DNA from: Legionella massiliensis
GTDB taxonomy: Bacteria; Pseudomonadota; Gammaproteobacteria; Legionellales; Legionellaceae
Reading direction: 5' to 3'
Assembly (NCBI RefSeq): GCF_000756815.1
Contig: NZ_CCVW01000002.1
Coordinates: 238,157 to 302,156, forward strand
Length of the DNA stretch: 64,000 bases
Below the pieces are notes generated by a model that made no database searches, was not told the origin of the DNA, and was given only the letters and a program-made list of their open reading frames with translations. Both the position numbers and the translations under genes were made by a program. This document shows positions 1 through 58,852 of the stretch, piece after piece (positions within the stretch are counted from its first letter, which is position 1; every line of letters starts with the position of its first letter).

Positions 1-984
1 AATAGCGGCCATGAGCACAACGCCTATTAAGATATAGGGCATGGGAATATCTCTATCAGTCCGCGGAATTTTTACATCGGTTCGACTTCTGGCAAAAAAA
101 GCGCTAAATGAAACACTCATACTTTTAGCCAGGGGTTTTATTAATTTAAGGAAGGTCCAGGTGCCAGCAAAAAGCATTGCCCCAATTCCTAAATAGCGCA
201 TTTCACTGTTCCATAGCAGTGTTGCAGCTGCATCAGGCGCATTATTACTAATAAACTCAGGAAAAAACTGGCTAACTATAGGCATTGCGACAAGCCAGGA
301 AATAATTGCGCCTAAGAAAATACTCAGGGCCATTTCATAGCCTACTAAATACCCTGCTCCAATCATTGTGGCCGAAAAGCCTACCCCAAATCCAAAGATT
401 GAACGCTTGGCGGTAAACCAAAAAGTCCAATTGTTGGCAATTACTTTGAACCCAGCCTGTAATAGCTCGATCAGTGCCCCGATAGCACCGCCAAAAAAAA
501 TATCCTGGATCCCAGCTTTTTCAGCTGAAGATTTTAAAACTTCCGCAATTGCACGGCCTTCGGGAAACCTTAACACCGGTTCATTCACTAAAACCCGCCG
601 TAAGGGAATCGAAAAAAGGACGCCTAAAATACCGCCACAGGCTGCAATAAAGAAATTGGTTAGATAATCAAAATGAGTCCAATATTGAATGATGATCAAA
701 GCAGGAATCGTATAGACAATACCACCTGCTACTGCTTCGCCAGCAGAAGCCGCAGTTTGCACTGCATTATTTTCCAGAATTGTTGCATCCTTGAATAAAC
801 GCAAAATCCCCATAGAAATAATCGCCGCGGGAATAGATGCTGAAGTCAGGATACCCAACTTTAAGGCCAGATAAGCATTGGACAAAGCCAATACCACTGT
901 CAGTAAAATCGCCAAAACAACAGAGCGTACTGTCAATTCAGCAATTTTTCTATCCGCGGCAATAAACGGGGCAACCTCACTCAT
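1..984 (-). CDS. OPT-family oligopeptide transporter, N-terminal part. The gene runs off the window start.
   Basis: Minus-strand ORF starting at ATG 984..982 and read by hand. The product begins MSEVAPFIAADRKIAELTVRSVVLAILLTVV...SIPAAIISMGILRLF...TILENNAVQTAASAGE and is polytopic and hydrophobic, with an N-terminus typical of the OPT superfamily. Its ATG overlaps the stop codon of the downstream gene by 1 nt (TAATG). The 99-aa + strand ORF at 368-667 is antisense to it. Confidence 0.55.
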   Translation of the reverse strand, partial: MSEVAPFIAADRKIAELTVRSVVLAILLTVVLALSNAYLALKLGILTSASIPAAIISMGILRLFKDATILENNAVQTAASAGEAVAGGIVYTIPALIIIQYWTHFDYLTNFFIAACGGILGVLFSIPLRRVLVNEPVLRFPEGRAIAEVLKSSAEKAGIQDIFFGGAIGALIELLQAGFKVIANNWTFWFTAKRSIFGFGVGFSATMIGAGYLVGYEMALSIFLGAIISWLVAMPIVSQFFPEFISNNAPDAAATLLWNSEMRYLGIGAMLFAGTWTFLKLIKPLAKSMSVSFSAFFARSRTDVKIPRTDRDIPMPYILIGVVLMAAI

Positions 985-1658
985 TAGTTACCCCACAAGG
1001 TTTGAGAGACTTCAGGACGCAGCCAGGCACTAAGCTTAGCCTTGGGAATTAAAACCGTTTGTGGGCCATAAACATAGGCCGCCACCTGATAAGTATCAAA
1101 CACGATAGCCAAGCCATTTTTGCTAAAAAACCAATTTTTATAATTCTCTTGAGTTGGTTTGGTGCCAGTTGCAATCCAGTCTTTATCTGAAATTTGCTTA
1201 GCTTTGATGGCCGCAGAACTTAATTTTGCAAGCTCTGTCAGATAATTGCTCTCGGGTTTGAATAACTGATCCAAAGTCACAACCTGATTATTTAGAAAAT
1301 TTAGCGATTGTACACTATTCGCAGGATGAGCTGCACCACGAGTATAAGCAGAAAGTGAAAATAAAAGACTTAAGGCCTTTGGATTTTGGAATTTGATTTT
1401 ATAGTCAATACGGAGGCTGCTTATCCCTGGTACATCCGCCGACAATTTCTCAGCCTTAGGCCTATTGTTCTTCTGCATGGATTGAATAAAATTTTGCACG
1501 GTTTCATCGATATTCTTATTTGCAAAACCTTGGGGATACTTGATTTGGAGATCCAACTCAGTAGTTTCTTTTTTAATTACCACTGTTGCAGGCTTAGAAG
1601 CCCAGGCCTGTCCTAAGGAACAACATAAAAATATAAGCGCTAAAATCGATCTTAGCAT
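984..1658 (-). CDS. Secreted or periplasmic protein with a DUF3298/DUF4163 (RsiV-like) domain
   Basis: 224 aa. Signal peptide MLRSILALIFLCCSLGQAWA. The motif SAYTRGAAHPANS...LNFLNNQVVTLDQLF resembles the Y-TGGAHG...LTL-DLF signature of DUF3298. The coding strand is preceded by a GGAG ribosome-binding site. Confidence 0.5.
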   Translation of the reverse strand: MLRSILALIFLCCSLGQAWASKPATVVIKKETTELDLQIKYPQGFANKNIDETVQNFIQSMQKNNRPKAEKLSADVPGISSLRIDYKIKFQNPKALSLLFSLSAYTRGAAHPANSVQSLNFLNNQVVTLDQLFKPESNYLTELAKLSSAAIKAKQISDKDWIATGTKPTQENYKNWFFSKNGLAIVFDTYQVAAYVYGPQTVLIPKAKLSAWLRPEVSQTLWGN

Positions 1659-1677
1659 TAGTGAAACTCCTTAAAGA

Positions 1678-2898
1678 TCAACTAGTTAACAGCCATTCAC
1701 CCGCAACCATGGTACGGTGAGGGAGCGGAAAACCAAAGTGGTAACAAAGTGACGCGCTATCATACACTGACCAAAGAACTAAATCTGCATTTAAACCAAC
1801 TTTGATAGAGCCTGTTTCTTGCTCAAGACCTAAGGCCTTTGCCCCCTGATAAGTAACTGCTGCTAAAACCTCAGGAACCCTAAGTTGAAAGAGTTGACAA
1901 GCCATATTCATCATTAAGAGTAAAGACGTTGTTGGCGAGCTGCCTGGATTAGAATCGGTTGCTATCGCGATTCCAACCCCCTTTTCTCGCAGCAGATCAA
2001 TAGGTGGTTTTATTGTTTCACGCAAGAAATAATAGGCTCCCGGCAAAAGCACAGCTACTGTACCACTTTCCGCCATTGCCCTAGCTCCAGCTTCATCCAG
2101 ATGTTCTAAATGATCACAGGATAAGGCTCCCATCTTGGCTGCCAGTTGACTTGCCCCTAAATTTGATAATTGCTCAGCATGGCATTTGATAGCTAAGCCA
2201 AGCTCTTTGGCGTTTAGAAAGAGTTGCTCTGTCTGTTTTAAATTAAAGGCAATCGACTCACAAAAGACATCAACAGCATCAGCTAATCCACTCTCTGCAA
2301 CCCGAGGTAACATTTCAAAGCAAAGAAAATCAACATAGGCTTGGCTATTATCCTTATACTCTGGCGGGATAGCATGGGCGCCAAGAAAGGTTGTTCTAAC
2401 ACGTAGGCCGCTTAGCTTAGCTAAGCGTCTTGCAACCCTTAACATCTTAAGTTCTGAATCTAAATCAAGGCCATAGCCTGATTTAATTTCCAAGGTTGTC
2501 ACCCCTTCTGCTCGCAAGGCCAAAATACGGGGTAAGGATTGCTGCAGCAACTCCTCCTCCGAAGCAGCACGAGTATTTCTTACAGTTGATAAGATACCGC
2601 CTCCCGAGCGCGCGATTTCTGCATAGGTTTCCCCTTCCAGGCGCCGCTTAAACTCATCAGCACGATCACCGGCATAAACAAGATGAGTATGGCAATCAAC
2701 CAAACCTGGGGTAAGCAACTGGCCCTGACAATCTTCAATTTGATAAGTTTGCTGCAAAAATTCAGCAGGCAAATCCGCACAATTACCGCACCAAACAATG
2801 CGCCCTTGATCTATGGCTACCGCCTGATTGTCTAACTGCTGACCCTCAGCATCAATTGTTGTGGCATTTAATAATAACCGCTCATAGGAATGCATCAT
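1678..2898 (-). CDS. hutI: Imidazolonepropionase
   Basis: 406 aa. Amidohydrolase signatures DCHTHLV and KCHAEQLS, and full-length similarity to HutI. It sits next to hutG. Confidence 0.85.
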
Positions 2899-3657
2899 TT
2901 ACTCCCACTCAGGAACCGTATTAGGCGCTCGCAGCCAATATTGGTGGTGACTTTTATCATAAATATCCCATTCTTTCGAAGAATAGACTGCGGGTTCTAT
3001 ATCCAGTAGCAACCAACAGAGGAAATCCCCTACTGTTGCCGGTGATAGCAGTAAGCCATTTCGATGCAGGTTAATAAAAAAATCATGCTTTTCTTCTTCC
3101 ATAAATTGGGCGTCGCGAATTAAACCCTGCATATCAGTATCAATAATTCCAGGCATCACAGAAGCCATTGCCAAGTTTGGTTTCTCTAGCTGCCAGCAAC
3201 GTGTCAGCATTGACAAAGCCGCTTTGGAAACACAGTAGCCAGACCAGCCAGCTACTGGAAAATAAGCTGCCCCAGAGCCAATGTGCAAAACGCGACCCTG
3301 CTTTAATTTATCGATTAGCAGCTGAGTTAAAAATAAGGGGGCATTAAGATTGGTCGCCAAAATTTGTTGCCAGGCGGACTCACTAATCGATTCGATAGGG
3401 GAAATAGGTTGGATAGTGCCAGCATTATGCACTAAACCGTCAATTGAATGCACTTCAGCTAAAGCAGCAACAAGCTGCTTACGTTCCTTGTCGGTAGATA
3501 CATCAGCACAATGGTAACTGATTAGCGAGGAAAACGAGGCTGTTTCAACAAGGGCTTGCTCTCGCCTGCCAACAATCAAAATCTTTTTACCACGTTTAGC
3601 TAAGGCCAGGGCTAAAGCACGCCCAATCCCGCTTCCTCCACCTGTGATTAAGTACAT
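2899..3657 (-). CDS. Short-chain dehydrogenase/reductase (SDR)
   Basis: 252 aa. N-terminal TGGGSGIGRALALALAKRG Rossmann motif. Catalytic Y-x-x-x-K (YCVSK). It ends 1 nt before the hutI start, consistent with one operon. Confidence 0.8.
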   Translation of the reverse strand: MYLITGGGSGIGRALALALAKRGKKILIVGRREQALVETASFSSLISYHCADVSTDKERKQLVAALAEVHSIDGLVHNAGTIQPISPIESISESAWQQILATNLNAPLFLTQLLIDKLKQGRVLHIGSGAAYFPVAGWSGYCVSKAALSMLTRCWQLEKPNLAMASVMPGIIDTDMQGLIRDAQFMEEEKHDFFINLHRNGLLLSPATVGDFLCWLLLDIEPAVYSSKEWDIYDKSHHQYWLRAPNTVPEWE

Positions 3658-3771
3658 TGGATTCCCCTAGGAGACGACAGTTAAACTTCGCGATAATAGC
3701 AGAGGCCCATCTAATTAGCACGATTCTTTGTAGGAGACAAAAAATAGAAAATCCTCTAATTTGCTCCTAAT

Positions 3772-4045
3772 CCCCGCGGCTTGACCCATAGGTATCTATA
3801 CAAGTGTCTGTAATAGATGAGCTCTGTCCCCCTAAGGCACGTCATCCAGAGCACAGCGAAGGATCTCCTGAATGTGGCACGGTGCTAATCCCGGAGATCC
3901 TTCGCTGCGCTCTGGATGACGTAGTGTTGAAACAAGGAAGGACGTGACCTTATTACAAACACTTGTGTAGATACCTATGGGCTTGACCGCGGGGTCTATC
4001 AAGCTTTCACTACTCCCGAGGTCAAGCCGCGGGAATTCGAGTTTT
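3772..4045. repeat. Composite nested palindromic element: a type A hairpin at 3840-3920, inside a ~30-bp inverted repeat (cccataggtatctatacaagtgtctgtaat / attacaaacacttgtgtagatacctatggg), inside D-like gcggcttgaccc arms
   Basis: Read directly. Near-identical to the copy at 40793-41025. Confidence 0.85.
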
Positions 4046-4165
4046 CCTGGGATTACCTATTTTTTTCTGTGCAAAGAGCACGATTATCGCGCAAGTAGAT
4101 GCAAATGAGCTTTAAGAGAGATATATTACTGTGATTTTGCAAATCGCCAGAGCCAGGATGCTAAA

Positions 4166-5125
4166 ATGCTAAACAAACTTTCAAATTATCAACCAACTCA
4201 GCCATCCCTATGGCAAGGACGCAAAGATAGTCTGCCCGGCGAACGTTTTTTTCAACATGTTAATCTCGTCGATTTGAACAACCAATCCTTAGCAGAATCA
4301 TCGAATGCAACCATTCTCCTTGGATTTTGCAGTGACGAAGGCATACGCCGAAATGAAGGACGTATCGGTGCTAAATCAGGTCCCCTTGAATTAAGAGAGC
4401 AACTGGCAAAGCTTTCTTGTCACTCCCAGCAACAATTTATCGATCTAGGTAACATTGTTTGCGAGCACGATCTAGAAGGTGCGCAAGAGCAGTTTGCCGA
4501 ATTAATTAGTTATTGCCATCTGCAAGGATATAAAACTCTAGCCTTTGGTGGAGGACATGAAATTGCCTGGGGGCACTTTCGCGGTTTAACTTCCCATTAC
4601 CCTAAACTTGGCATCATTAATTTCGATGCTCATTTTGATTTGCGCCCTCTAAAAGATGGACGTTTTGCTACTTCAGGCACTCCTTTCCGTCAAATTTCAG
4701 AATATTGCTTGCTAAATCAACTACCTTTTGATTATTGTTGTCTCGGAATCCAGAACATTGCCAATACTCGAAGCTTATTTGACTGTGCAAAAGAACTAAA
4801 AGTTTCTTATCTGTGCACAGAACGAATCAATCAAGAAAGCTTTGCCTGGCAAACTGCGTTTCTGGATGAGTTTATGTTACGCCATGACTATATTTATCTA
4901 AGTCTTTGTCTTGATGTATTTGCCGAGTGCTTCGCACCGGGGGTCAGCGCTCCTCAAGCTACGGGTCTAACACCCTGGCAGGCCCTCCCACTGTTGAAAT
5001 ACATCCTACAAACTGGCAAAGTGGTAAGTCTTGATGTGGCTGAGCTCTCGCCTCCCTTAGATGAAGGGAAAAAAACTGTGCGATTAGCCGCAAGTCTTGT
5101 GGCAGAGTTGCTAGATTACTATTAA
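4166..5125 (+). CDS. hutG: Formimidoylglutamase (arginase/ureohydrolase family)
   Basis: 319 aa. Mn-binding motifs GGGHEIAWGH, DAHFD and SLDVAE. Placement divergent from hutI favours HutG over arginase. Confidence 0.7.
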   Translation: MLNKLSNYQPTQPSLWQGRKDSLPGERFFQHVNLVDLNNQSLAESSNATILLGFCSDEGIRRNEGRIGAKSGPLELREQLAKLSCHSQQQFIDLGNIVCEHDLEGAQEQFAELISYCHLQGYKTLAFGGGHEIAWGHFRGLTSHYPKLGIINFDAHFDLRPLKDGRFATSGTPFRQISEYCLLNQLPFDYCCLGIQNIANTRSLFDCAKELKVSYLCTERINQESFAWQTAFLDEFMLRHDYIYLSLCLDVFAECFAPGVSAPQATGLTPWQALPLLKYILQTGKVVSLDVAELSPPLDEGKKTVRLAASLVAELLDYY

Positions 5126-5142
5126 AGCAAGGAGTGTTATCG

Positions 5143-6324
5143 ATGAAAAAATCCATGCTGTATGCAGGATTAATGACTATTTTAAGTGCAACAGCGTATG
5201 CCGAAGATAGTAACAACCTCAATACTATACAAACAAATCCTGGAGCTACTAATGCTGTGCAATTAGCCATGCAACAGGGAGTACAACTAGCATCTTCTGA
5301 TGCAGTGCAAACACCCGCTAATAGCACTGTCAAAACACCTGCTAACTCTGAAACACAGCCCGCAGCAGTCAGTACACCAACTTCCGCCACCGGCGCAGCA
5401 CCAACCCCGGCTTTGGATACCTCAACAGCACCAGCAGCACCAGCAGCGACAGGTGCGACTACGACACCAGCGACGGGGGATGTTACAACGCCAGCGGCAG
5501 GTGCTGCTACGACACCAGCAGCAGGTACTGCTACGACACCAGCGGCAGGTGCTGCTACGACACCAGCGGCAGGTGCTGCTACGACACCAGCGGCAGGTGC
5601 TGCTACGACACCAGCGGCAGGTGCTGCTACGGCACCGGCAGCAGGTGCGACTACGACACCGGCAGCAGGTGCGACTACGACACCGGCAGCAGGTGCGACT
5701 TCGACACCGGCAGCAGGTGCGACTACGACACCGGCAGCAGGTGCGACTACGACACCGGCAGCAGGTGCGACTTCGACACCAGAAGCAGGTACGACTACAA
5801 CACCAGCAGCAATCAAGCCAGCCCAACCCTTGGATTGTAGCTACCGTATTCCGCCAGAAACTTCGCATATCGAACAAACTATTGTGATGAAATGGGCTGA
5901 GAAGGCTGCAGAGCAATCCTTTGATTTTGACTTCAACAACCTTGATAAACAAATTTCCCTATTAAAGTCTTGTTATACTGAGCAGGGATGGCAAGGTTTT
6001 AATGATGCCTTACAAAAATCAGGAAACATCAATGCCATTAAAACTCAGCAACTTACTGTAAGTTCGATGGTAAATGGGGAAGGCAAAATTACTGAGCTCA
6101 AAGATAACCAATGGAAAATTGCTATCCCAATGCAGGTGGTTTACCAAAATGATAAGGAAAAATTAACTCAACCGCTAACCATCAATCTGATTGTTGGACG
6201 CAAAGTCTCTGGCGACTTAGGTATTATGCAAATGATTGCTATACCTCGCCAACCAATGACCAATGCAGCTGGTGGTGAGAACCCTCAAGAGACAACTACC
6301 ACAACGACTACACAGAAGCCCTAA
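5143..6324 (+). CDS. Secreted protein with a Thr/Pro/Ala-rich tandem-repeat linker and a C-terminal IcmL/DotI-like domain
   Basis: ATG at 5143 lies 9 nt after an AAGGAG ribosome-binding site. The ORF track starts at a GTG at 5134 that overlaps that site. Signal peptide MKKSMLYAGLMTILSATAYA. About 15 copies of TTPAAGA(A/T) are encoded by 24-bp tandem repeats at 5449-5810. The C-terminal ~170 aa (GWQGFNDALQKSGNINAIK...WKIAIPMQVVY...LTINLIVGRKV...LGIMQMIAIP) match my recollection of the IcmL/DotI periplasmic domain pattern. Confidence 0.6.
   Translation: MKKSMLYAGLMTILSATAYAEDSNNLNTIQTNPGATNAVQLAMQQGVQLASSDAVQTPANSTVKTPANSETQPAAVSTPTSATGAAPTPALDTSTAPAAPAATGATTTPATGDVTTPAAGAATTPAAGTATTPAAGAATTPAAGAATTPAAGAATTPAAGAATAPAAGATTTPAAGATTTPAAGATSTPAAGATTTPAAGATTTPAAGATSTPEAGTTTTPAAIKPAQPLDCSYRIPPETSHIEQTIVMKWAEKAAEQSFDFDFNNLDKQISLLKSCYTEQGWQGFNDALQKSGNINAIKTQQLTVSSMVNGEGKITELKDNQWKIAIPMQVVYQNDKEKLTQPLTINLIVGRKVSGDLGIMQMIAIPRQPMTNAAGGENPQETTTTTTTQKP
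5449..5810 (+). repeat. Perfect 24-bp tandem repeat array, ~15 units, in two sub-families
   Basis: Repeated units gctacgacaccagcggcaggtgct and gcgactacgacaccggcagcaggt, read directly. This array produces the artefactual overlapping ORFs at 4959-5816(-), 5300-5887(+) and 5422-5952(-). Confidence 0.9.
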
Positions 6325-6415: not shown

Positions 6416-6441
6416 TAAATGTAAGATCAAGTCTCCCACCC

Positions 6442-6515
6442 CGTCATCCTGAGCGCAGCGAAGGATCTCCGGGATTAGCACAGTTGCTACACTCAGGAGA
6501 TCCTTCGCTGCGCTC
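6442..6515. repeat. Type A palindromic mini-element (cgtcatcctgagcgcagcgaaggatctcc...ggagatccttcgctgcgctc)
   Basis: About 75-86-bp near-perfect hairpin. Copies at 3840-3920, 6442-6515, 15168-15238, 19597-19681, 28075-28147, 33234-33306, 40867-40948 and 42340-42421. Confidence 0.85.
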
Positions 6516-6659
6516 CCAAAGACGTACGTCATGTCGAACGTAGAGAGACATCTCCTGAGTGTAGCAACTGTGCTAATCCCGGAGATCCCTCACTATGTTC
6601 GGGATAACGAGGTTTTTATGGATGTTTGCCCAAAAGGGGCTGGGGCGCTCAGGATGACG
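6515..6659 (+). repeat. Type B mini-element (~131-145 bp; cccaaagacgtacgtcatgtcgaacgtagagagacatctcc...tttgccccaatggggctggggcgctc), fused to the preceding type A
   Basis: Consensus shared with 15238-15790 (x4), 16758-16900(-), 27911-28074(-), 30725-30872(-), 33095-33233(-) and 58710-58852(+). Confidence 0.85.
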
Positions 6660-15121: not shown

Positions 15122-15167
15122 TGATACAATTGAGTCCAAGTTTGTAAGTAATAGGGCACTCCCCTTC

Positions 15168-15238
15168 CGTCATCCTGAGCGTAGCGAAGAGCTCCTGAAT
15201 GTGACAGAGTGCTAACCCCGGAGATCCTTCGCTACGCT
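15168..15238. repeat. Type A palindromic mini-element
   Basis: Immediately followed by the type B tandem array. Confidence 0.8.
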
Positions 15239-15790
15239 CCCAAAGGCGTACGTCATGTCGAACGTAGAGAGACATCTCCTGAATATGGCAGATGCTAGTC
15301 CCGGAGATCCCCCACTACGTTCGGGATGACGGGATCTTTATCGATGTTTGCCCCAATGGGGCTGGGGCGCTCCCAAAGGCGTACGTCATGTCGAACATAG
15401 AGAGACATCTCCTGAATGTGGCAGATGCTAGTCCCGGAGATCCCCCACTAAGTTCGGGATGACGGGATCTTTATCGATGTTTGCCCCAATGGGGCTGAGG
15501 CGCTCCCAAAGGCGTACGTCATGTCGAACGTAGAGAGGCATCTCCTGAATGTGGCAGATGTTAGTCCCGGAGATCCCTCACTACGTTCGGGATGACAGGG
15601 TCTTTATCGATGTTTGCCCCAATGGGGCTGAGGCGCTCCCAAAGGCGTACGTCATGTCGAACGTAGTGAGACATCTCCTGAATATGGCAGATGCTAGTCC
15701 CGGAGATCCCCCACTATGTTCGGGATGACGGGATCTTTATCGATGTTTGCCCCTAAGGGGCTAGGACACTCTGGATGACGTGCTATGTTA
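15238..15790 (+). repeat. Tandem array of about 4.2 type B units with a ~132-bp period, filling the tolC-ttcA intergenic region
   Basis: Unit starts (ctcccaaaggcgtacgtcatg) at about 15238, 15371, 15503 and 15635. Units are 90-95% identical to each other. The array ends with ...ggctaggacactctggatgacg. Confidence 0.9.
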
Positions 15791-15833
15791 GGGTAATTAC
15801 AGTTCCATTTCATATTTAATTTAGGTTTTTATT

Positions 15834-16679
15834 ATGTCTACAAACCCCACTATTGTTGAAAAAAAATTATTACATTACACCGGCAAAGCCATTTCTGATT
15901 TTAATATGATTCAGCGTGGTGATCGGGTGATGGTGTGTCTATCTGGCGGTAAAGATTCTTTTAGTTTGCTTACCCTATTGCATACCCTACGTCGCCGCTC
16001 AAATAATAAATTTGATATTTTTGCTTTTACCCTTGATCAGGCGCAACCCGGTTGGGATGATAGTAAATTACGTGCCTGGCTCGATGAGAAAGCTATTCCT
16101 CATGAGATCTTAACTCGAGATACCTATTCCATCGTTAAAGAGAAAATTCCAGAAGGCAAAACGTATTGCTCGCTCTGTTCGCGTCTAAGACGAGGTATTA
16201 TCTATCGCTACGCAGAAGAAAATGGCTTCACAAAAATTGCCCTGGGGCACCATCGCGATGATTTAATACGCACCTTAATGATGTCTATTTTGTATAACGG
16301 GGATATCCGTTCGATGCCGCCTAAGCTATTAAGCGACAATAAGAAACACATCGTTATACGTCCCTTATGTTATGTTCAGGAACGAGACATTATTAAATTT
16401 GCTGAAGAACAGGCTTATCCGATCATTCCCTGTACTCTATGTGGTTCCCAGGAGAACCTTGCGCGCAAACGGATTGGTAAATTAATCGATCAACTTGCCG
16501 AAGAAAATCCTAAGGTTCCGTCCAATATTCTACATGCTTTGCAAAGCATCAAGCCGAGCCAATTGATGGACCAGGATCTATGGCAGTTTAAAAATCTTGA
16601 AAGCCAACTGCTCAATCCAATGCTGGATAATGGAGAATCTGTCATTGGTGAGGAAGAGCTGGAAGTTATTGAAGACTAG
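15834..16679 (+). CDS. ttcA: tRNA 2-thiocytidine(32) synthetase
   Basis: 281 aa. PP-loop motif CLSGGKDS. Cys motifs [10 protein letters not shown] and CTLCGSQ. Family-typical length. Confidence 0.85.
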
Positions 16680-16757
16680 CTTTGAGATCCCGCGGTCAAG
16701 CCGTGGGATTTCGGAACGATTAGGACTGTAGATTATTCTCATCACCTTCACATAGCC

Positions 16758-16900
16758 CCTCACCCTGAGCGCCCCAGCCCCTTTTGGGCAAACATCGATA
16801 AAGACCCCGTCATCCCGAACATAGTGAGGGATCTCCGGGACTAGCATCTGCCACATTCAGGAGATGTCTCTCTGCGTTCGACATGACGTACGTCTTTGGG
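16758..16900 (-). repeat. Type B mini-element in reverse orientation, plus a D-like half-site at 16681-16705
   Basis: Reverse complement of the B consensus (gagcgccccagcccc...caaacatcgataaagacccc...cgtctttggg). Confidence 0.8.
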
Positions 16901-16946
16901 AGCACAACGAAGAATCTCCCAGGTGCTCTTCCTTATATATCATCGA

Positions 16947-30724: not shown

Positions 30725-30872
30725 CCGTCATTCTGAGCGCCCCAGACCCTTTGGGGGGCAAACATCGATAAAGACCTCGTCATCCCGAACATAGTGAGGG
30801 ATCTCCGGGATTAGCACAGTGCCACATTCAGGAGATGTCTCTCTACGTTCGACATGACGTACGTCTTTGGGA
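30725..30872 (-). repeat. Type B mini-element, reverse orientation
   Basis: ccgtcattctgagcgccccagaccctttggggggcaaacatcgataaagacctcgtcatcccgaacatagtgagggatctccggg...cgtctttggg. Confidence 0.85.
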
Positions 30873-30953
30873 GCGATAGGAACCATTTATTTTTGATTTT
30901 ATAAATTTTTTATCATAAATTGATTACTCGCATCTCAGATATAAGAAGTAGTT

Positions 30954-33094: not shown

Positions 33095-33306
33095 CGTCAC
33101 GTCATCCTGAGCGCTCCAGCCCCTTTGGGGCAAACATCGATAAAGACCTCGTCATCCCAGGGATCTCTGGGATTAGCACAGCGCTACACTTAGGAGATGT
33201 CTCTCTACGTTCGACATGACGTACGTCTTTGGGAGTGCAGCGAAGGATTTCTTGAATATAGCACAGTGCCAATCCTGGAGATCCTTCGCTGCGCTCAGGA
33301 TGACGG
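33095..33306 (-). repeat. Type B (reverse orientation, internally deleted) fused to type A (33234-33306)
   Basis: Read directly. The B copy lacks ~25 bp relative to the consensus. Confidence 0.8.
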
Positions 33307-35545: not shown

Positions 35546-35584
35546 TTTTTTCATTATAACTAAGGTCAGCCTCCGCTCTACTAT

Positions 35585-35672
35585 TGAATTCCCGCAGCTT
35601 GACCGTAGGATCCGCTGGTTATAAGCTCTTCACTCTGAGCCCGATCCCTCGGTCAAGCCGCGGGAATTCGGG
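35585..35672. repeat. Type D element, plus a shared ttcactctgagccc module
   Basis: gaattcccgcagcttgaccg...cggtcaagccgcgggaattcg. The ttcactctgagccc module also occurs next to the A copy at 19575. Confidence 0.8.
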
Positions 35673-37916: not shown

Positions 37917-38890
37917 TAAATGTAACCCTGTAATTGTTCATGAGCCCATAGCGCCTGCCAAAACGAGTCGCTTAATTTTGCTTCAACAGGTAAAAAATAC
38001 CAGGAATCAGCTGCAAATGCTCGGCATTTGACCGCATCTTTCTCAGTCATAACCACTACATTCTCCCTAAACTGTAGATCATTGATGTGAAAGCGATGAT
38101 GATCTGGGAAAGGATACTTTATAATTGCAATCCCTAGGTTTTGCAAGGTTGTAAAAAACCGTTGTGGATGGCCAATCGCTGCCACAGCGGCAACTGGCGT
38201 AGACAAGGTGTTTAAGGCAACCTTTTCTCCTGTCGCCAGATGGGTTAGCTCACCTGGTTGCATATTCATTGAATAAGCGCCAGGCCAGACTCCCTCATTA
38301 ACAACTAGTAAATCACTTTTCCCTAAACGACTGACCGTTTCACGCAGAGGACCTGCTGGTAAACACAGGCCATTACCTAAGCGCCTTAGACCATCAATAA
38401 CTACAATTTCAATTGACCGCCCCATTGCATAATGCTGCAAGCCATCATCAGAGATGATGATTTGGCTTTGGTATTTGTCCAGCAAATACTGCACTGCCTG
38501 AACCCGTTTAGGCGCTATCACAACTGGGCAACCCGTTTTTTGGGCAATTAAAAAGGGTTCATCGCCGGCCTGGCTGGTTTTGTCGCTAAGAGATACCTCA
38601 TGCGGAAATTGTTTGAGTGTAGAGCCATATCCCCGGCTAACTATACCAACCTTTAATCCCCTGCTCTTTAGCTGTTCGGCTAAGGCAATCACCAGCGGTG
38701 TCTTACCAACGCCACCTACCGTTAAATTTCCAACCACAATAATGGGAACAGGGAAATCTAATTGGCGAAACTTTAGTAAATAGGCGCGCCGTATTCCAGT
38801 CACCACCCTGTATAACAAAGCTAAGGGCCACAGTAGCCAACGTAAAGGATGCTTACCATACCATAATTTATCAATAGTCCCTGCGGCCAT
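37916..38890 (-). CDS. lpxK: Tetraacyldisaccharide 4'-kinase
   Basis: 324 aa. P-loop VGNLTVGGVGKTP. Sits immediately downstream of msbA, as in many proteobacteria. Confidence 0.85.
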   Translation of the reverse strand: MAAGTIDKLWYGKHPLRWLLWPLALLYRVVTGIRRAYLLKFRQLDFPVPIIVVGNLTVGGVGKTPLVIALAEQLKSRGLKVGIVSRGYGSTLKQFPHEVSLSDKTSQAGDEPFLIAQKTGCPVVIAPKRVQAVQYLLDKYQSQIIISDDGLQHYAMGRSIEIVVIDGLRRLGNGLCLPAGPLRETVSRLGKSDLLVVNEGVWPGAYSMNMQPGELTHLATGEKVALNTLSTPVAAVAAIGHPQRFFTTLQNLGIAIIKYPFPDHHRFHINDLQFRENVVVMTEKDAVKCRAFAADSWYFLPVEAKLSDSFWQALWAHEQLQGYI

Positions 38891-40698
38891 TATGCGAAAG
38901 CTTCTTCATCATTATCTACACTCAATTGTTGTACGCGATACAGTTGGGCATAGTGACCATCCAAGGCCAATAACTGTTGATGTGCTCCCTGTTCAACAAT
39001 TTGTCCTTGGCTCATTACAACAATCTTGTTCGCTCGTTTGATTGTCGATAAACGGTGGGCAATAACCAGAGTAGTTCTGGTTTTCATAATTTGTTCTAAG
39101 GCAACCTGAATATAACGCTCTGACTCCGAATCGAGAGCGGAGGTCGCTTCATCAAGTATCAAAATTGGTGCATCTTTCAATATCGCTCGCGCTATCGCCA
39201 AACGCTGACGTTGTCCGCCTGATAACAGGACGCCATTTTCACCGATTCGAGTATCGTAGCCATCAGGTAAACGCTGAATAAACTCATCAGCAAAGGCAAC
39301 TTTAGCAGCTTGCTCAATTTGTTCACGGCTTACATCAAAACGACCATAGGCGATATTATTGGCTAAGCTATCATTAAACAGAGTGACATGCTGACTGACC
39401 AAGGCAATCTGCTCACGTAAACAGGCCAAAGATAATTCATGAATTGGCTCGCCATCCAGTGTTATTTGTCCCTGCTTTAATTCATAAAATCGCGGTAATA
39501 AACTTGCGATAGTCGTTTTACCACTTCCTGAATGACCGACAAGAGCAACCGTTTCTCCAGCTGCGATGTTAAAACTCACCTCATGCAATACTTGCTGTCC
39601 CTGGCGATAAGCATAGCTAACCTTGTCAAATTGAATATCGCCTCTTACCTTTTGCTGCAAGCGTCGTCCTTTATCAGTTTCAACAGGTTTATCAAGCAAA
39701 TTAAACACACTTTCAGCACCTGCTAAACCACGCTGGATAGTAGCATTCAAGGTAGTTAGGGTTTTCATCGGCTTAATAAGCTGTAACATGGCGGCGATAA
39801 TGGCCAGGAAAGAACCGGCTGTAATGATAATTACTGTTGATAGTTGGATAGCAGCCAGGATGATCATGGCGATCCCTATAGCGATAACAAACTGTACTCC
39901 AGAAACGTTAATCGCCTTGGAGATAGCCACCTTCATATCATTTCTACGCGAAACCTCTGTAGCATGATTAAATTTACTAATTTCATGCTGCTCGCCACCA
40001 AAAATACGCACAACCCGATAACCATCAATGACTTCACCAGCAATCTCAGTCACTTCGCTCATCGATTTTTGAACCTTATGGCTAATACGACGGACTCGCT
40101 TATTGGTATAGTTAACAATGATACCGATAAAGGGAATGGTTAGTAAGAACATCAGTGATAGCTGCCAGCAAATCACCAGCATTACCGTCAAAAGACCAAT
40201 CACCAGACAGGTATTCTGCACAATATCAGTCAACGCATCAGCGCTCACCTGCGCGACCTGTTCAACATCATAGAGAATCTTTGACAACAATTGCCCTGAG
40301 GTTGCTTCATCATAATAGTCAGCCGGCAATTTAACGATATGGGCAAAGACACGCTGCCTTAGCACCTTCACTACCGATCTGGCAACCCAGGTCATGCAGT
40401 AACTACCCAAAGAACTAACAAGCCCTCGTACAGTGATTCCTATCAGCACGATAAAAGGAATTTTCTTCACAAAATCCATATCAATATGAATAAAGCCCTT
40501 ATCAAGAAAAGGACGCATCATATAGGTAAAACCAGCATCGATGATTGAATAGAGAATATTGGCGAACACGCCTAATAAAAGGACAGGCCAGAAAGGTTTA
40601 ACATAAGAAAGCAAGCGTCTATAAAGAGGGCCCGTTTTGCCTTGAGGCTTTCTATTCAGAGGCTTTTTATTCATCAGTCTGCGATAAGGTTGGATCAA
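38890..40698 (-). CDS. msbA: Lipid A export ATP-binding/permease protein MsbA
   Basis: 602 aa. Six-transmembrane ABC exporter core plus a nucleotide-binding domain ([29 protein letters not shown]). Confidence 0.9.
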   Translation of the reverse strand: MIQPYRRLMNKKPLNRKPQGKTGPLYRRLLSYVKPFWPVLLLGVFANILYSIIDAGFTYMMRPFLDKGFIHIDMDFVKKIPFIVLIGITVRGLVSSLGSYCMTWVARSVVKVLRQRVFAHIVKLPADYYDEATSGQLLSKILYDVEQVAQVSADALTDIVQNTCLVIGLLTVMLVICWQLSLMFLLTIPFIGIIVNYTNKRVRRISHKVQKSMSEVTEIAGEVIDGYRVVRIFGGEQHEISKFNHATEVSRRNDMKVAISKAINVSGVQFVIAIGIAMIILAAIQLSTVIIITAGSFLAIIAAMLQLIKPMKTLTTLNATIQRGLAGAESVFNLLDKPVETDKGRRLQQKVRGDIQFDKVSYAYRQGQQVLHEVSFNIAAGETVALVGHSGSGKTTIASLLPRFYELKQGQITLDGEPIHELSLACLREQIALVSQHVTLFNDSLANNIAYGRFDVSREQIEQAAKVAFADEFIQRLPDGYDTRIGENGVLLSGGQRQRLAIARAILKDAPILILDEATSALDSESERYIQVALEQIMKTRTTLVIAHRLSTIKRANKIVVMSQGQIVEQGAHQQLLALDGHYAQLYRVQQLSVDNDEEAFA

Positions 40699-58695: not shown

Positions 58696-58709
58696 TTTGT
58701 TGTTCCTAC

Positions 58710-58852
58710 TCCCAAAGACGTACGTCATGTCGAACGTAGAGAGACATCTCCTGAATGTGGCACTGTGCTAATCCCGGAGATCCCTCACTATGTTCGGGAT
58801 GACGAGGTCTTTATCGATGTTTACCTAAAAGGGGCTGGGACGCTCAGGATGA
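58710..58852 (+). repeat. Type B mini-element, forward orientation
   Basis: cccaaagacgtacgtcatgtcgaacgtagagagacatctcctgaatgtggcactgtgctaatcccggagatccctcactatgttcgggatgacg...gggctgggacgctcaggatgac. Confidence 0.85.

Follow-up and report, generated by a model that had tools for sequence, protein, structure and literature searches.

How did two similar, elaborately nested palindromes come to occupy separate sites in the Legionella massiliensis genome, and which part of them moved? The stretch of DNA analyzed here, hereafter the window, comprises 64,000 nucleotides (assembly GCF_000756815.1, contig NZ_CCVW01000002.1, positions 238,157 to 302,156; coordinates below are those of the window) and holds one such structure at 3772-4045 and another at 40793-41025. 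An initial annotation described each as a type A hairpin inside a 30-bp inverted repeat inside D-like arms and proposed that the complete nest had recently been copied and pasted. Our analysis leads to a different answer. With a probability of roughly 85%, each copy is a non-autonomous MITE (miniature inverted-repeat transposable element) of a lineage resembling IS50/Tn5 (IS4 family of insertion sequences), and the two landed independently in the tips of hairpin repeats that were already present.

Both elements are found where they had been noted. Pairwise alignment gives a core of 193 bp for copy 1 (3787-3979, plus strand) and of 195 bp for copy 2 (40812-41006, plus strand); in direct orientation the cores agree at 185 of 195 columns (94.9% identity, with eight mismatches and one 2-nt indel), while either core aligned with the reverse complement of the other reaches only 75% identity. 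The moved core is bounded by CATAGG...CCTATG and carries terminal inverted repeats of 28 nt that begin with CATAGGTATCTACACAAGT. In copy 1 these repeats lie at 3787-3814 and 3952-3979 and are complementary at 26 of 28 positions; the right terminal repeat of copy 2 has a G-to-C change. The 30-bp inverted repeat noted previously is real and consists of 28 nt of element and 2 nt of palindromic target duplication (28/30 in copy 1). Similarity of the pair as a unit ends at the element termini and the farther flanks differ, so that the regions 3772-4045 and 40793-41025 are not nearly identical end to end, as had been stated. The 20-nt end motif CATAGGTATCTAYAYAAGTG occurs at five sites in the window (3787+, 3979-, 40812+, 41006-, and 63230+) versus 0.02 expected. 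Coding capacity is lacking: the longest internal open reading frames (ORFs; 47 amino acids in copy 1) are not matched in copy 2, and no ORF is conserved between the copies. Folded as single-stranded DNA, each region forms one long nested hairpin, with a minimum free energy of -82.6 kcal/mol for copy 1 (z -14.1) and -72.6 kcal/mol for copy 2 (z -11.2; both relative to dinucleotide shuffles).

The sequences that abut the cores show what the outermost layer of the nest is. Copy 1 reads CCCCGC-GGCTTGACC-core-GGCTTGACC-GCGGGG and copy 2 reads CCCGC-GGTCAAGCC-core-GGTCAAGAC-GCGGGG. The 9-bp direct duplication is perfect at copy 1 (3778-3786 and 3980-3988, plus strand) and matches at 8 of 9 positions at copy 2 (40803-40811 and 41007-41015, plus strand). 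Removal of the core together with one 9-mer restores an intact D hairpin, CCCGCGGCTTGACCGCGGG, which is present uninterrupted seven times in the window (for example at 48846-48864 on the plus strand; others are at 16689, 23536, 35591, 35646, and 48892). Hence, the "D-like arms" are a split, pre-existing D hairpin together with a 9-bp target-site duplication. The stems of the split hairpins can still be followed on the plus strand: CCCCGC at 3772-3777 pairs with GCGGGG at 3989-3994 around copy 1, and around copy 2 the left stem, read from the sequence, is at 40798-40802 and the right stem GCGGGG at 41016-41021. The target duplications originally proposed, cccgcgg and gaattcg, are wrong; the true duplication is the 9-bp center of the D hairpin.

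The two hosts are not the same. The host of copy 1 is a two-hairpin D element (3769-4040 minus the insertion): its left hairpin received the MITE, and its second, intact hairpin is at 4015-4033 on the minus strand. The segment gaggtcaagccgcgggaattcg is indeed found beside copy 1 only, as had been noted, but it belongs to this host repeat and not to the MITE. Copy 2 sits in a solo D hairpin with GAATTC-like sequence on both sides. The 9-mers GGCTTGACC at copy 1 and GGTCAAGCC at copy 2 (the left one of its pair) are exact reverse complements, and the asymmetric D loop relative to the asymmetric core therefore runs in opposite directions in the two copies. Because the orientation of the D loop is opposite and the D contexts differ, the facts fit two independent insertions into D hairpins. 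The truncated third copy noted at 63215-63250 also exists: the left half of a third D hairpin, CCCCGC plus GGTTAAGCC (63215-63229, plus strand), abuts a solo left terminal repeat (63230-63256, plus strand), with no interior, right end, or right D half remaining. The solo end at 63230 marks a third insertion.

D hairpins are also found by themselves in the window. Two-hairpin D elements of 70-90 nt, in which GAATTCCCGCGGCTTGACCGCGGGATCC is followed by a 20-30-nt spacer and an inverted copy, are present at 35582-35671, at 48837-48917, and, with the MITE removed, at 3769-4040; they look like a separate small MITE-like or REP-doublet family (REP, repetitive extragenic palindrome). Solo D hairpins are at 16689 and 23536, and a D fragment is at 23480.

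Copying and pasting of the complete nest (D arms, inverted repeat, and A hairpin) as one recently mobile unit would also place D-type sequence directly outside the inverted repeat in both copies and in the remnant at 63215, and the 94.9% identity of the copies agrees with it. We nevertheless regard it as very unlikely. The D loop is GGCTTGACC at copy 1 and its reverse complement at copy 2, the D hosts differ beyond the stem, and the supposed arms hold a 9-bp direct repeat as expected from insertion into an intact D hairpin. Moreover, the same ends are found elsewhere in unrelated hairpins or at non-hairpin sites, and full-length elements (see below) stop exactly at CATAGG. Only the 193/195-bp core moved.

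Where else do such ends occur? A scan of 185,579 species-representative genomes for the end motif returned 43 loci, mostly in metagenome-assembled genomes of Methylococcales, with others in Hydrogenophilales, Burkholderiales, Pseudomonas japonica, and one Bacteroidetes genome. There the motif forms an arm of the terminal inverted repeats (core CATAGGTATCTACACA) that bound elements of 120-320 bp. The interiors of the elements are unrelated between genomes and only the 16-20-nt end is common. Most of them are flanked by 9-bp duplications, which are perfect in loci L002, L010, L015, L037, and L041; altogether, a 9-bp duplication accompanies copies 1 and 2 and related elements at 16 other sites. 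In some Methylococcales and related bins, MITEs with these ends are very abundant, with several per 8 kb and many contigs that stop inside a 315-bp copy (L014, Methyloglobulus sp. TF_21, 224-4301; WQTW01 contigs L001, L006, L011, L020-L022, L034, and L042). The usual insertion site of these MITEs is a CCTTCTCCC...GGGAGAAGG hairpin.

Short-query BLAST against plasmids gave access to full-length elements. The plasmid NZ_CP156788.1 of Acinetobacter sp. ANC 7924 carries a 1370-bp element (L046, 3005-4374) with a single ORF of 409 amino acids, CATAGGTATCTACACA at both ends, and a perfect 9-bp duplication, CTTTTAAGG. The Aeromonas media plasmid pMC64A carries a 1434-bp element (L049, 388-1821) with the ends CATAAGAATCTACACATCT and CATAGGCATCTACACAAGT and a perfect 9-bp duplication, CTCAGAAAG. 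In the genome bin UBA7470 (L033), an end is followed by an interrupted transposase homologue that is 39% identical. In all three, the 16-20-nt ends seen in the window elements stand around or beside a gene for a DDE transposase. Another full-length member of the IS50-like lineage is on the Serratia marcescens plasmid p11663 (L050, 511-1803). The members in L049 and L050 are on IncC and IncU resistance plasmids, one of them about 100 bp from sul1, and are annotated only as "transposase". Large ORFs beside unpaired ends in the 43 genome loci were considered as a possible parent and rejected, as they are only housekeeping genes (MoaA, YceI, and a hydrolase). The Thiomargarita MITEs (PMC4853749), including the hupL MITE with its 10-bp repeat, were likewise set aside as unrelated, since the end motifs are missing from the supplementary sequences. 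The window elements thus combine a length of 193/195 bp, absence of coding sequence, terminal inverted repeats, a duplication of fixed 9-bp length, and ends in common with an autonomous element, which is the description of a MITE.

The transposase of the full-length elements matches PF01609 and has 575 homologues at E <= 1e-5, typically on contigs of 1.3-1.5 kb. In an alignment of 24 homologues, D67, D161, and E302 are invariant or nearly so, as is the signature Y295-(2)-R298-(3)-E302-(6)-K309. All 24 family members have PF01609 and 3 of the 24 have the Tn5 DNA-binding domain PF14706. Searched against solved structures, the single sequence gives no match; the family profile gives significant matches to the Tn5 transposase and its inhibitor form only (E = 3e-9, profile positions 21-344), and it aligns D67, D161, and E302 with the catalytic Tn5 residues D97, D188, and E326. 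Among the transposase models in NCBIfam, those of the IS4 family match best, but with 68-88 bits versus cut-offs of 115-250 all are below the curated threshold, and a model for FlhF, which is unrelated, scores beside them. The lineage is a divergent IS4/IS50 relative and not a member of a curated equivalog. The ends tell a similar story: compared in register with the Tn5 outside end, CTGACTCTTATACACAAGT (Tn5 end sequences from PMC3347997), the window end agrees at 12 of 19 positions and is identical at positions 11-19, and some full-length ends read TACACATCT, like the Tn5 mosaic end. Because the ends are common with full-length elements and the transposase of the latter is homologous to that of Tn5, the window elements are classified, on sequence grounds, as MITEs of an IS50-like lineage.

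Why were D hairpins hit? To describe the target, 18 non-redundant empty sites were reconstructed and flank symmetry was scored over 10 positions about the duplication center, with random positions in the same DNA as the null. The duplicated 9-mer has a roughly palindromic consensus, C-Y-Y-T-W-A-R-R-G, over the 18 sites. At least 7 of 10 flank positions are symmetric at 6 of the 18 sites (null 0.0054 per site, P = 5e-10), and the mean symmetry is 5.2 at the reconstructed sites versus 2.5 at random positions. In the window, three of three insertions are in the same register of the D hairpin, in both orientations, and seven D hairpins are still empty. Many Methylococcales insertions are in the tips of CCTTCTCCC...GGGAGAAGG hairpins; in other genomes the targets are unrelated hairpins or are not hairpins at all. 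One possible reading, which we offer tentatively and would not bet on, is that the IS50-like lineage recognizes DNA structure in addition to a 9-bp sequence, for example the tips of REP-type repeats extruded as hairpins or cruciforms. In this scenario, other selfish repeats would provide a "safe haven" for the lineage and its MITEs, the same 16-20-nt ends might repeatedly have acquired interiors unrelated to one another (in the present case a REP doublet) in Legionella, Methylococcales, Hydrogenophilales, and Pseudomonas, and the nesting of three repeat classes could be a systematic outcome of targeting and not an accident.

The innermost layer, the type A hairpin, has a history of its own. 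It lies at 3840-3921 in copy 1, as an inverted pair of a CGTC-tagged REP-like unit with a 26-nt spacer, and at 40867-40948 in copy 2, so that it occupies the same place in both copies. The position and orientation of the hairpin are the same in the two copies, hence it was inside the MITE before they separated. The earlier proposal is supported to this extent: the palindromes are mobile DNA, and both descend from one ancestral element that already held the A hairpin. The 82-nt hairpin belongs to a repeat family (D3) with at least nine copies in the window; A hairpins are seen at 3840-3921, 6441-6522, 15167-15248, 19598-19679, 28065-28146, 30778-30859, 33224-33305, 40867-40948, 42340-42421, and 58723-58804. 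Its arm is a 27-29-nt unit, CGTC-ATCCT-GA-G-CGCAG-C-GA-AGGAT-CTC(C), of which the 64 kb hold 26 examples, 21 of them distinct. The 5-bp stem covaries (ATCCT/AGGAT, ATTCT/AGAAT, ATGCT/AGCAT, and ATCCC/GGGAT), with C-G, T-A, and G-C pairs at positions 6/22 and T-A and C-G pairs at positions 8/20. Adjoining this stem, a tandem G.A/A.G is invariant and a 5-nt loop is closed by a G-C pair.

At least 120 metagenome contigs (loci L051 onward), which vary in base composition, contain an exact 20-mer of the A arm; the unit is mostly present there as an inverted pair with a variable spacer of 25-35 nt. One of these loci has an end-like motif, which was dismissed as a chance match as it contains three mismatches and lies inside a coding sequence. 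A repeat of the Nostoc type in cyanobacteria, considered from the look of the A hairpin, was rejected on the grounds that PyrD encoded in the window is 100% identical to the Legionella massiliensis protein. A literature search by the A-unit sequence found no description of it. In architecture the unit agrees with CGTC-tagged REPs as described in words (PMC3733652; Di Nocera et al. 2013), repeats that have no known dedicated transposase; the likeness is one of description.

Two further explanations were considered. In the first, the copies would stem from segmental duplication, gene conversion, or homologous recombination between repeats, with no transposition involved. The window is dense in recombination-prone repeats, and the A hairpin of copy 1 is about equally similar to a free A hairpin (94%) and to that of copy 2 (95%), which hints at homogenization within the A family. 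Similarity of the two copies, however, stops precisely at the terminal repeats, 9-bp target duplications at both copies are the signature of a staggered cut, and the family behaves in the same way in many genomes and has full-length members that encode a transposase. This origin is highly improbable. In the second explanation, a hairpin-recognizing single-strand transposase of the IS200/IS605 or RAYT type would have mobilized the elements in the manner of REPINs (REP doublets forming hairpins). An almost wholly palindromic element with long hairpin potential and a REP-like doublet in its interior invites this idea, but Y1 (HUH) enzymes give no target duplication and insert beside a short fixed motif; the elements in question have 9-bp duplications and terminal inverted repeats of the classical kind, in common with DDE insertion sequences. 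We consider involvement of such an enzyme extremely improbable.

How old are the insertions? The initial annotation called the mobility recent and the pair far more similar than any other two elements. The latter does not hold: similarity is 99% between the arms at 30757-30873 and 58709-58825 and 94-96% among the 133-nt tandem units at 15235-15899, and the free-standing A hairpin at 42340-42424 is 94% similar to the one in copy 1. The 30757-30873/58709-58825 pair, 117 nt of A-type and related modules that are 99% complementary, is the most similar repeat pair in the window and would make a stronger case for a recent event than the MITE pair does. The array at 15235-15899 comprises four or five 133-nt units, 94-96% identical and built of A-type and other palindromic modules, and inverted copies related to it are at 16741-16924 and 27916-28124. 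The MITE copies are about 5% apart; for comparison, an independent assembly of this organism from a read archive (L044), in which the right part of copy 2 occupies the same site, departs from the window by 0.08% (1 difference per 1250 bases). Mutations are present in one target duplication and in two terminal repeats. Of the substitutions, six affect paired positions: the A stems have four, and two terminal repeats have one each. All six break pairing and none is compensated, as neutral decay predicts. Given also the lack of a transposase in the window, the copies are not demonstrably recent.

Copy 1 lies in a divergent promoter region: to its left is a short-chain dehydrogenase gene (2899-3657, minus strand) and to its right an arginase-family gene (4166-5125, plus strand). 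Its earlier placement between hutI and hutG needs a minor correction, as the hutI-like amidohydrolase gene is one gene farther to the left. Copy 2 lies in a co-directional spacer between pyrD (41063-42058, minus strand) and an msbA-type ABC transporter gene (38890-40698, minus strand), that is, in the 3' region of pyrD and upstream of a conserved msbA promoter-like site (40737-40708). This spacer is 364 bp in the window versus 106 bp (L047) and 262 bp (L048) in the closest available relatives. The initial annotation had held that both copies at orthologous positions in all related genomes, with equal divergence, would mean ancient insertions conserved by selection; the orthologous spacers of L047 and L048 have neither the D hairpin nor the element and keep the msbA promoter-like region. 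These relatives are distant, with PyrD 75-78% identical (after L. massiliensis itself, the next PyrD relatives are at most 78% identical). The insertions are specific to the L. massiliensis lineage, and since the relatives are distant they can be dated only to that lineage. An ORF at 5134-6324 contains about 20 tandem 24-nt (8-codon) repeats (5369-5859). At the C terminus of its product is a DotI/IcmL type IVB secretion domain (PF11393); a proline-rich (Cornifin-like) match to the product is weak and below threshold. The repeats probably encode a linker of variable length.

Could the structure itself be what is maintained? REP-type hairpins can affect mRNA stability, and a nested hairpin selected as a functional RNA or DNA structure (a terminator, an mRNA stabilizer, or a regulatory site), with the likeness to transposon ends being secondary, would suit the extreme stability of the fold and the location of copy 2 between the pyrD 3' region and the msbA promoter-like site. 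Rfam covariance models gave no match in the whole window at gathering thresholds, and promoter and terminator scans at both sites gave nothing attributable to the element, including no terminator-like site. In addition, the six uncompensated changes in paired positions argue against selection on structure, the orthologous spacer in relatives is without the element, and the copies are in unlike contexts. Selection for a structural function is thus very unlikely as an explanation.

Transposition of a gene-less element would proceed as follows. The 193/195-bp element would supply two transposase-binding ends, the 28-bp inverted repeats. A DDE transposase encoded elsewhere by a full-length relative would bind both ends and excise the element. 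Insertion would take place through cuts staggered by 9 bp, and repair of the stagger would leave the 9-bp direct duplication. The enzyme may favor hairpin-forming repeats, at their tips, and a near-palindromic 9-bp site (approximately C-Y-Y-T-W-A-R-R-G), which in this genome would be the center of the short D hairpin. A REP-type doublet, the A hairpin, was present inside the element before the surviving copies parted, and drift and decay altered them after insertion. The chemistry is expected to be cut-and-paste of the Tn5 type with the transposase acting in trans, instead of the copy-and-paste originally envisaged, and the source transposase would be, or would formerly have been, encoded in this genome.

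Several observations weigh against this interpretation. The resemblance of the window elements to the full-length elements stops after about 20 nt, with no similarity in the interiors, and a direct parent was not found. The 64-kb window has no transposase gene of the matching family, Legionella is not named as the source of any transposase homologue among the 120 listed of 575, and none of the 43 end-motif loci from the species-representative genomes is from Legionella. The metagenome scan for the exact subfamily, GGTATCTAYAYAAGTGTYTGTAAT, gave no matches. Furthermore, recombination between the 28-bp terminal repeats could in principle invert the interior and so give the same picture as the opposite orientations of copies 1 and 2, a caveat that is countered only by the differing D contexts. 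Literature on Legionella massiliensis repeats and on Legionella MITEs and IS4 elements yielded no description of these elements.

Collectively, the "triple palindrome" becomes a readable history: a host hairpin repeat, a Tn5-like MITE in its tip, and a REP doublet inside the MITE. It is an ordinary kind of nesting in bacterial junk DNA, an IS4/IS50-like MITE in a REP-like hairpin that carries a REP doublet, and nothing suggests a new mechanism or a host function. Exact boundaries aid annotation of the repeat-rich L. massiliensis genome, as such elements break assemblies and create spurious small ORFs. In addition, the widespread end sequence CATAGGTATCTACACAAGT together with 9-bp duplications can be used to find the family elsewhere.

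How do these elements compare with known systems? Like other bacterial MITEs (Correia of Neisseria, ERIC, RUP, Nezha of cyanobacteria, and the QMITEs of Coxiella; PMC5896051), they are shorter than 300 bp, non-coding, and intergenic, have terminal inverted repeats, a target duplication, and strong hairpin potential, and have ends in common with a full-length insertion sequence. They differ in that the parent is IS50-like and the duplication is 9 bp, in that the same ends surround unrelated interiors across several orders of Proteobacteria, and in being nested inside one repeat while carrying another. The A unit resembles CGTC-tagged REPs and REPINs, as described (PMC3733652), in the CGTC start, an 8-position stem that opens with AT, a 5-nt loop, a short tail, and an occurrence in inverted pairs and clusters in many taxa. 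Relative to the same description, the A unit has an invariant tandem G.A/A.G in the stem (two non-Watson-Crick positions) and a tail CTC(C) instead of CCA, and it pairs tail-to-tail around a 25-35-nt spacer.

With IS50/Tn5, the full-length relatives have in common the aligned DDE residues and YREK signature, 9-bp target duplications, and a weakly palindromic target site. The relation is distant and is seen with a profile only, and the end departs from that of Tn5 in its outer ten positions (CATAGGTATC versus CTGACTCTTA). Unlike the composite transposon Tn5, the relatives are single insertion sequences of 1.37-1.43 kb, and the window has only the gene-less miniature form. A parallel in target choice comes from another family. 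IS1397 and ISKpn1 (IS3 family) insert into loops of REP/BIME palindromes (BIME, bacterial interspersed mosaic element). The likeness lies in insertion at the tip of a short, repeated, hairpin-forming intergenic palindrome, with the host repeat split around the element; there is no relationship in transposase family, ends, or duplication length, and the preference described here, with 6 of 18 sites strongly symmetric across genomes, is statistical instead of absolute. If the preference for hairpin tips is real, a Tn5-type enzyme would join the few transposases known to target REP-like palindromes.

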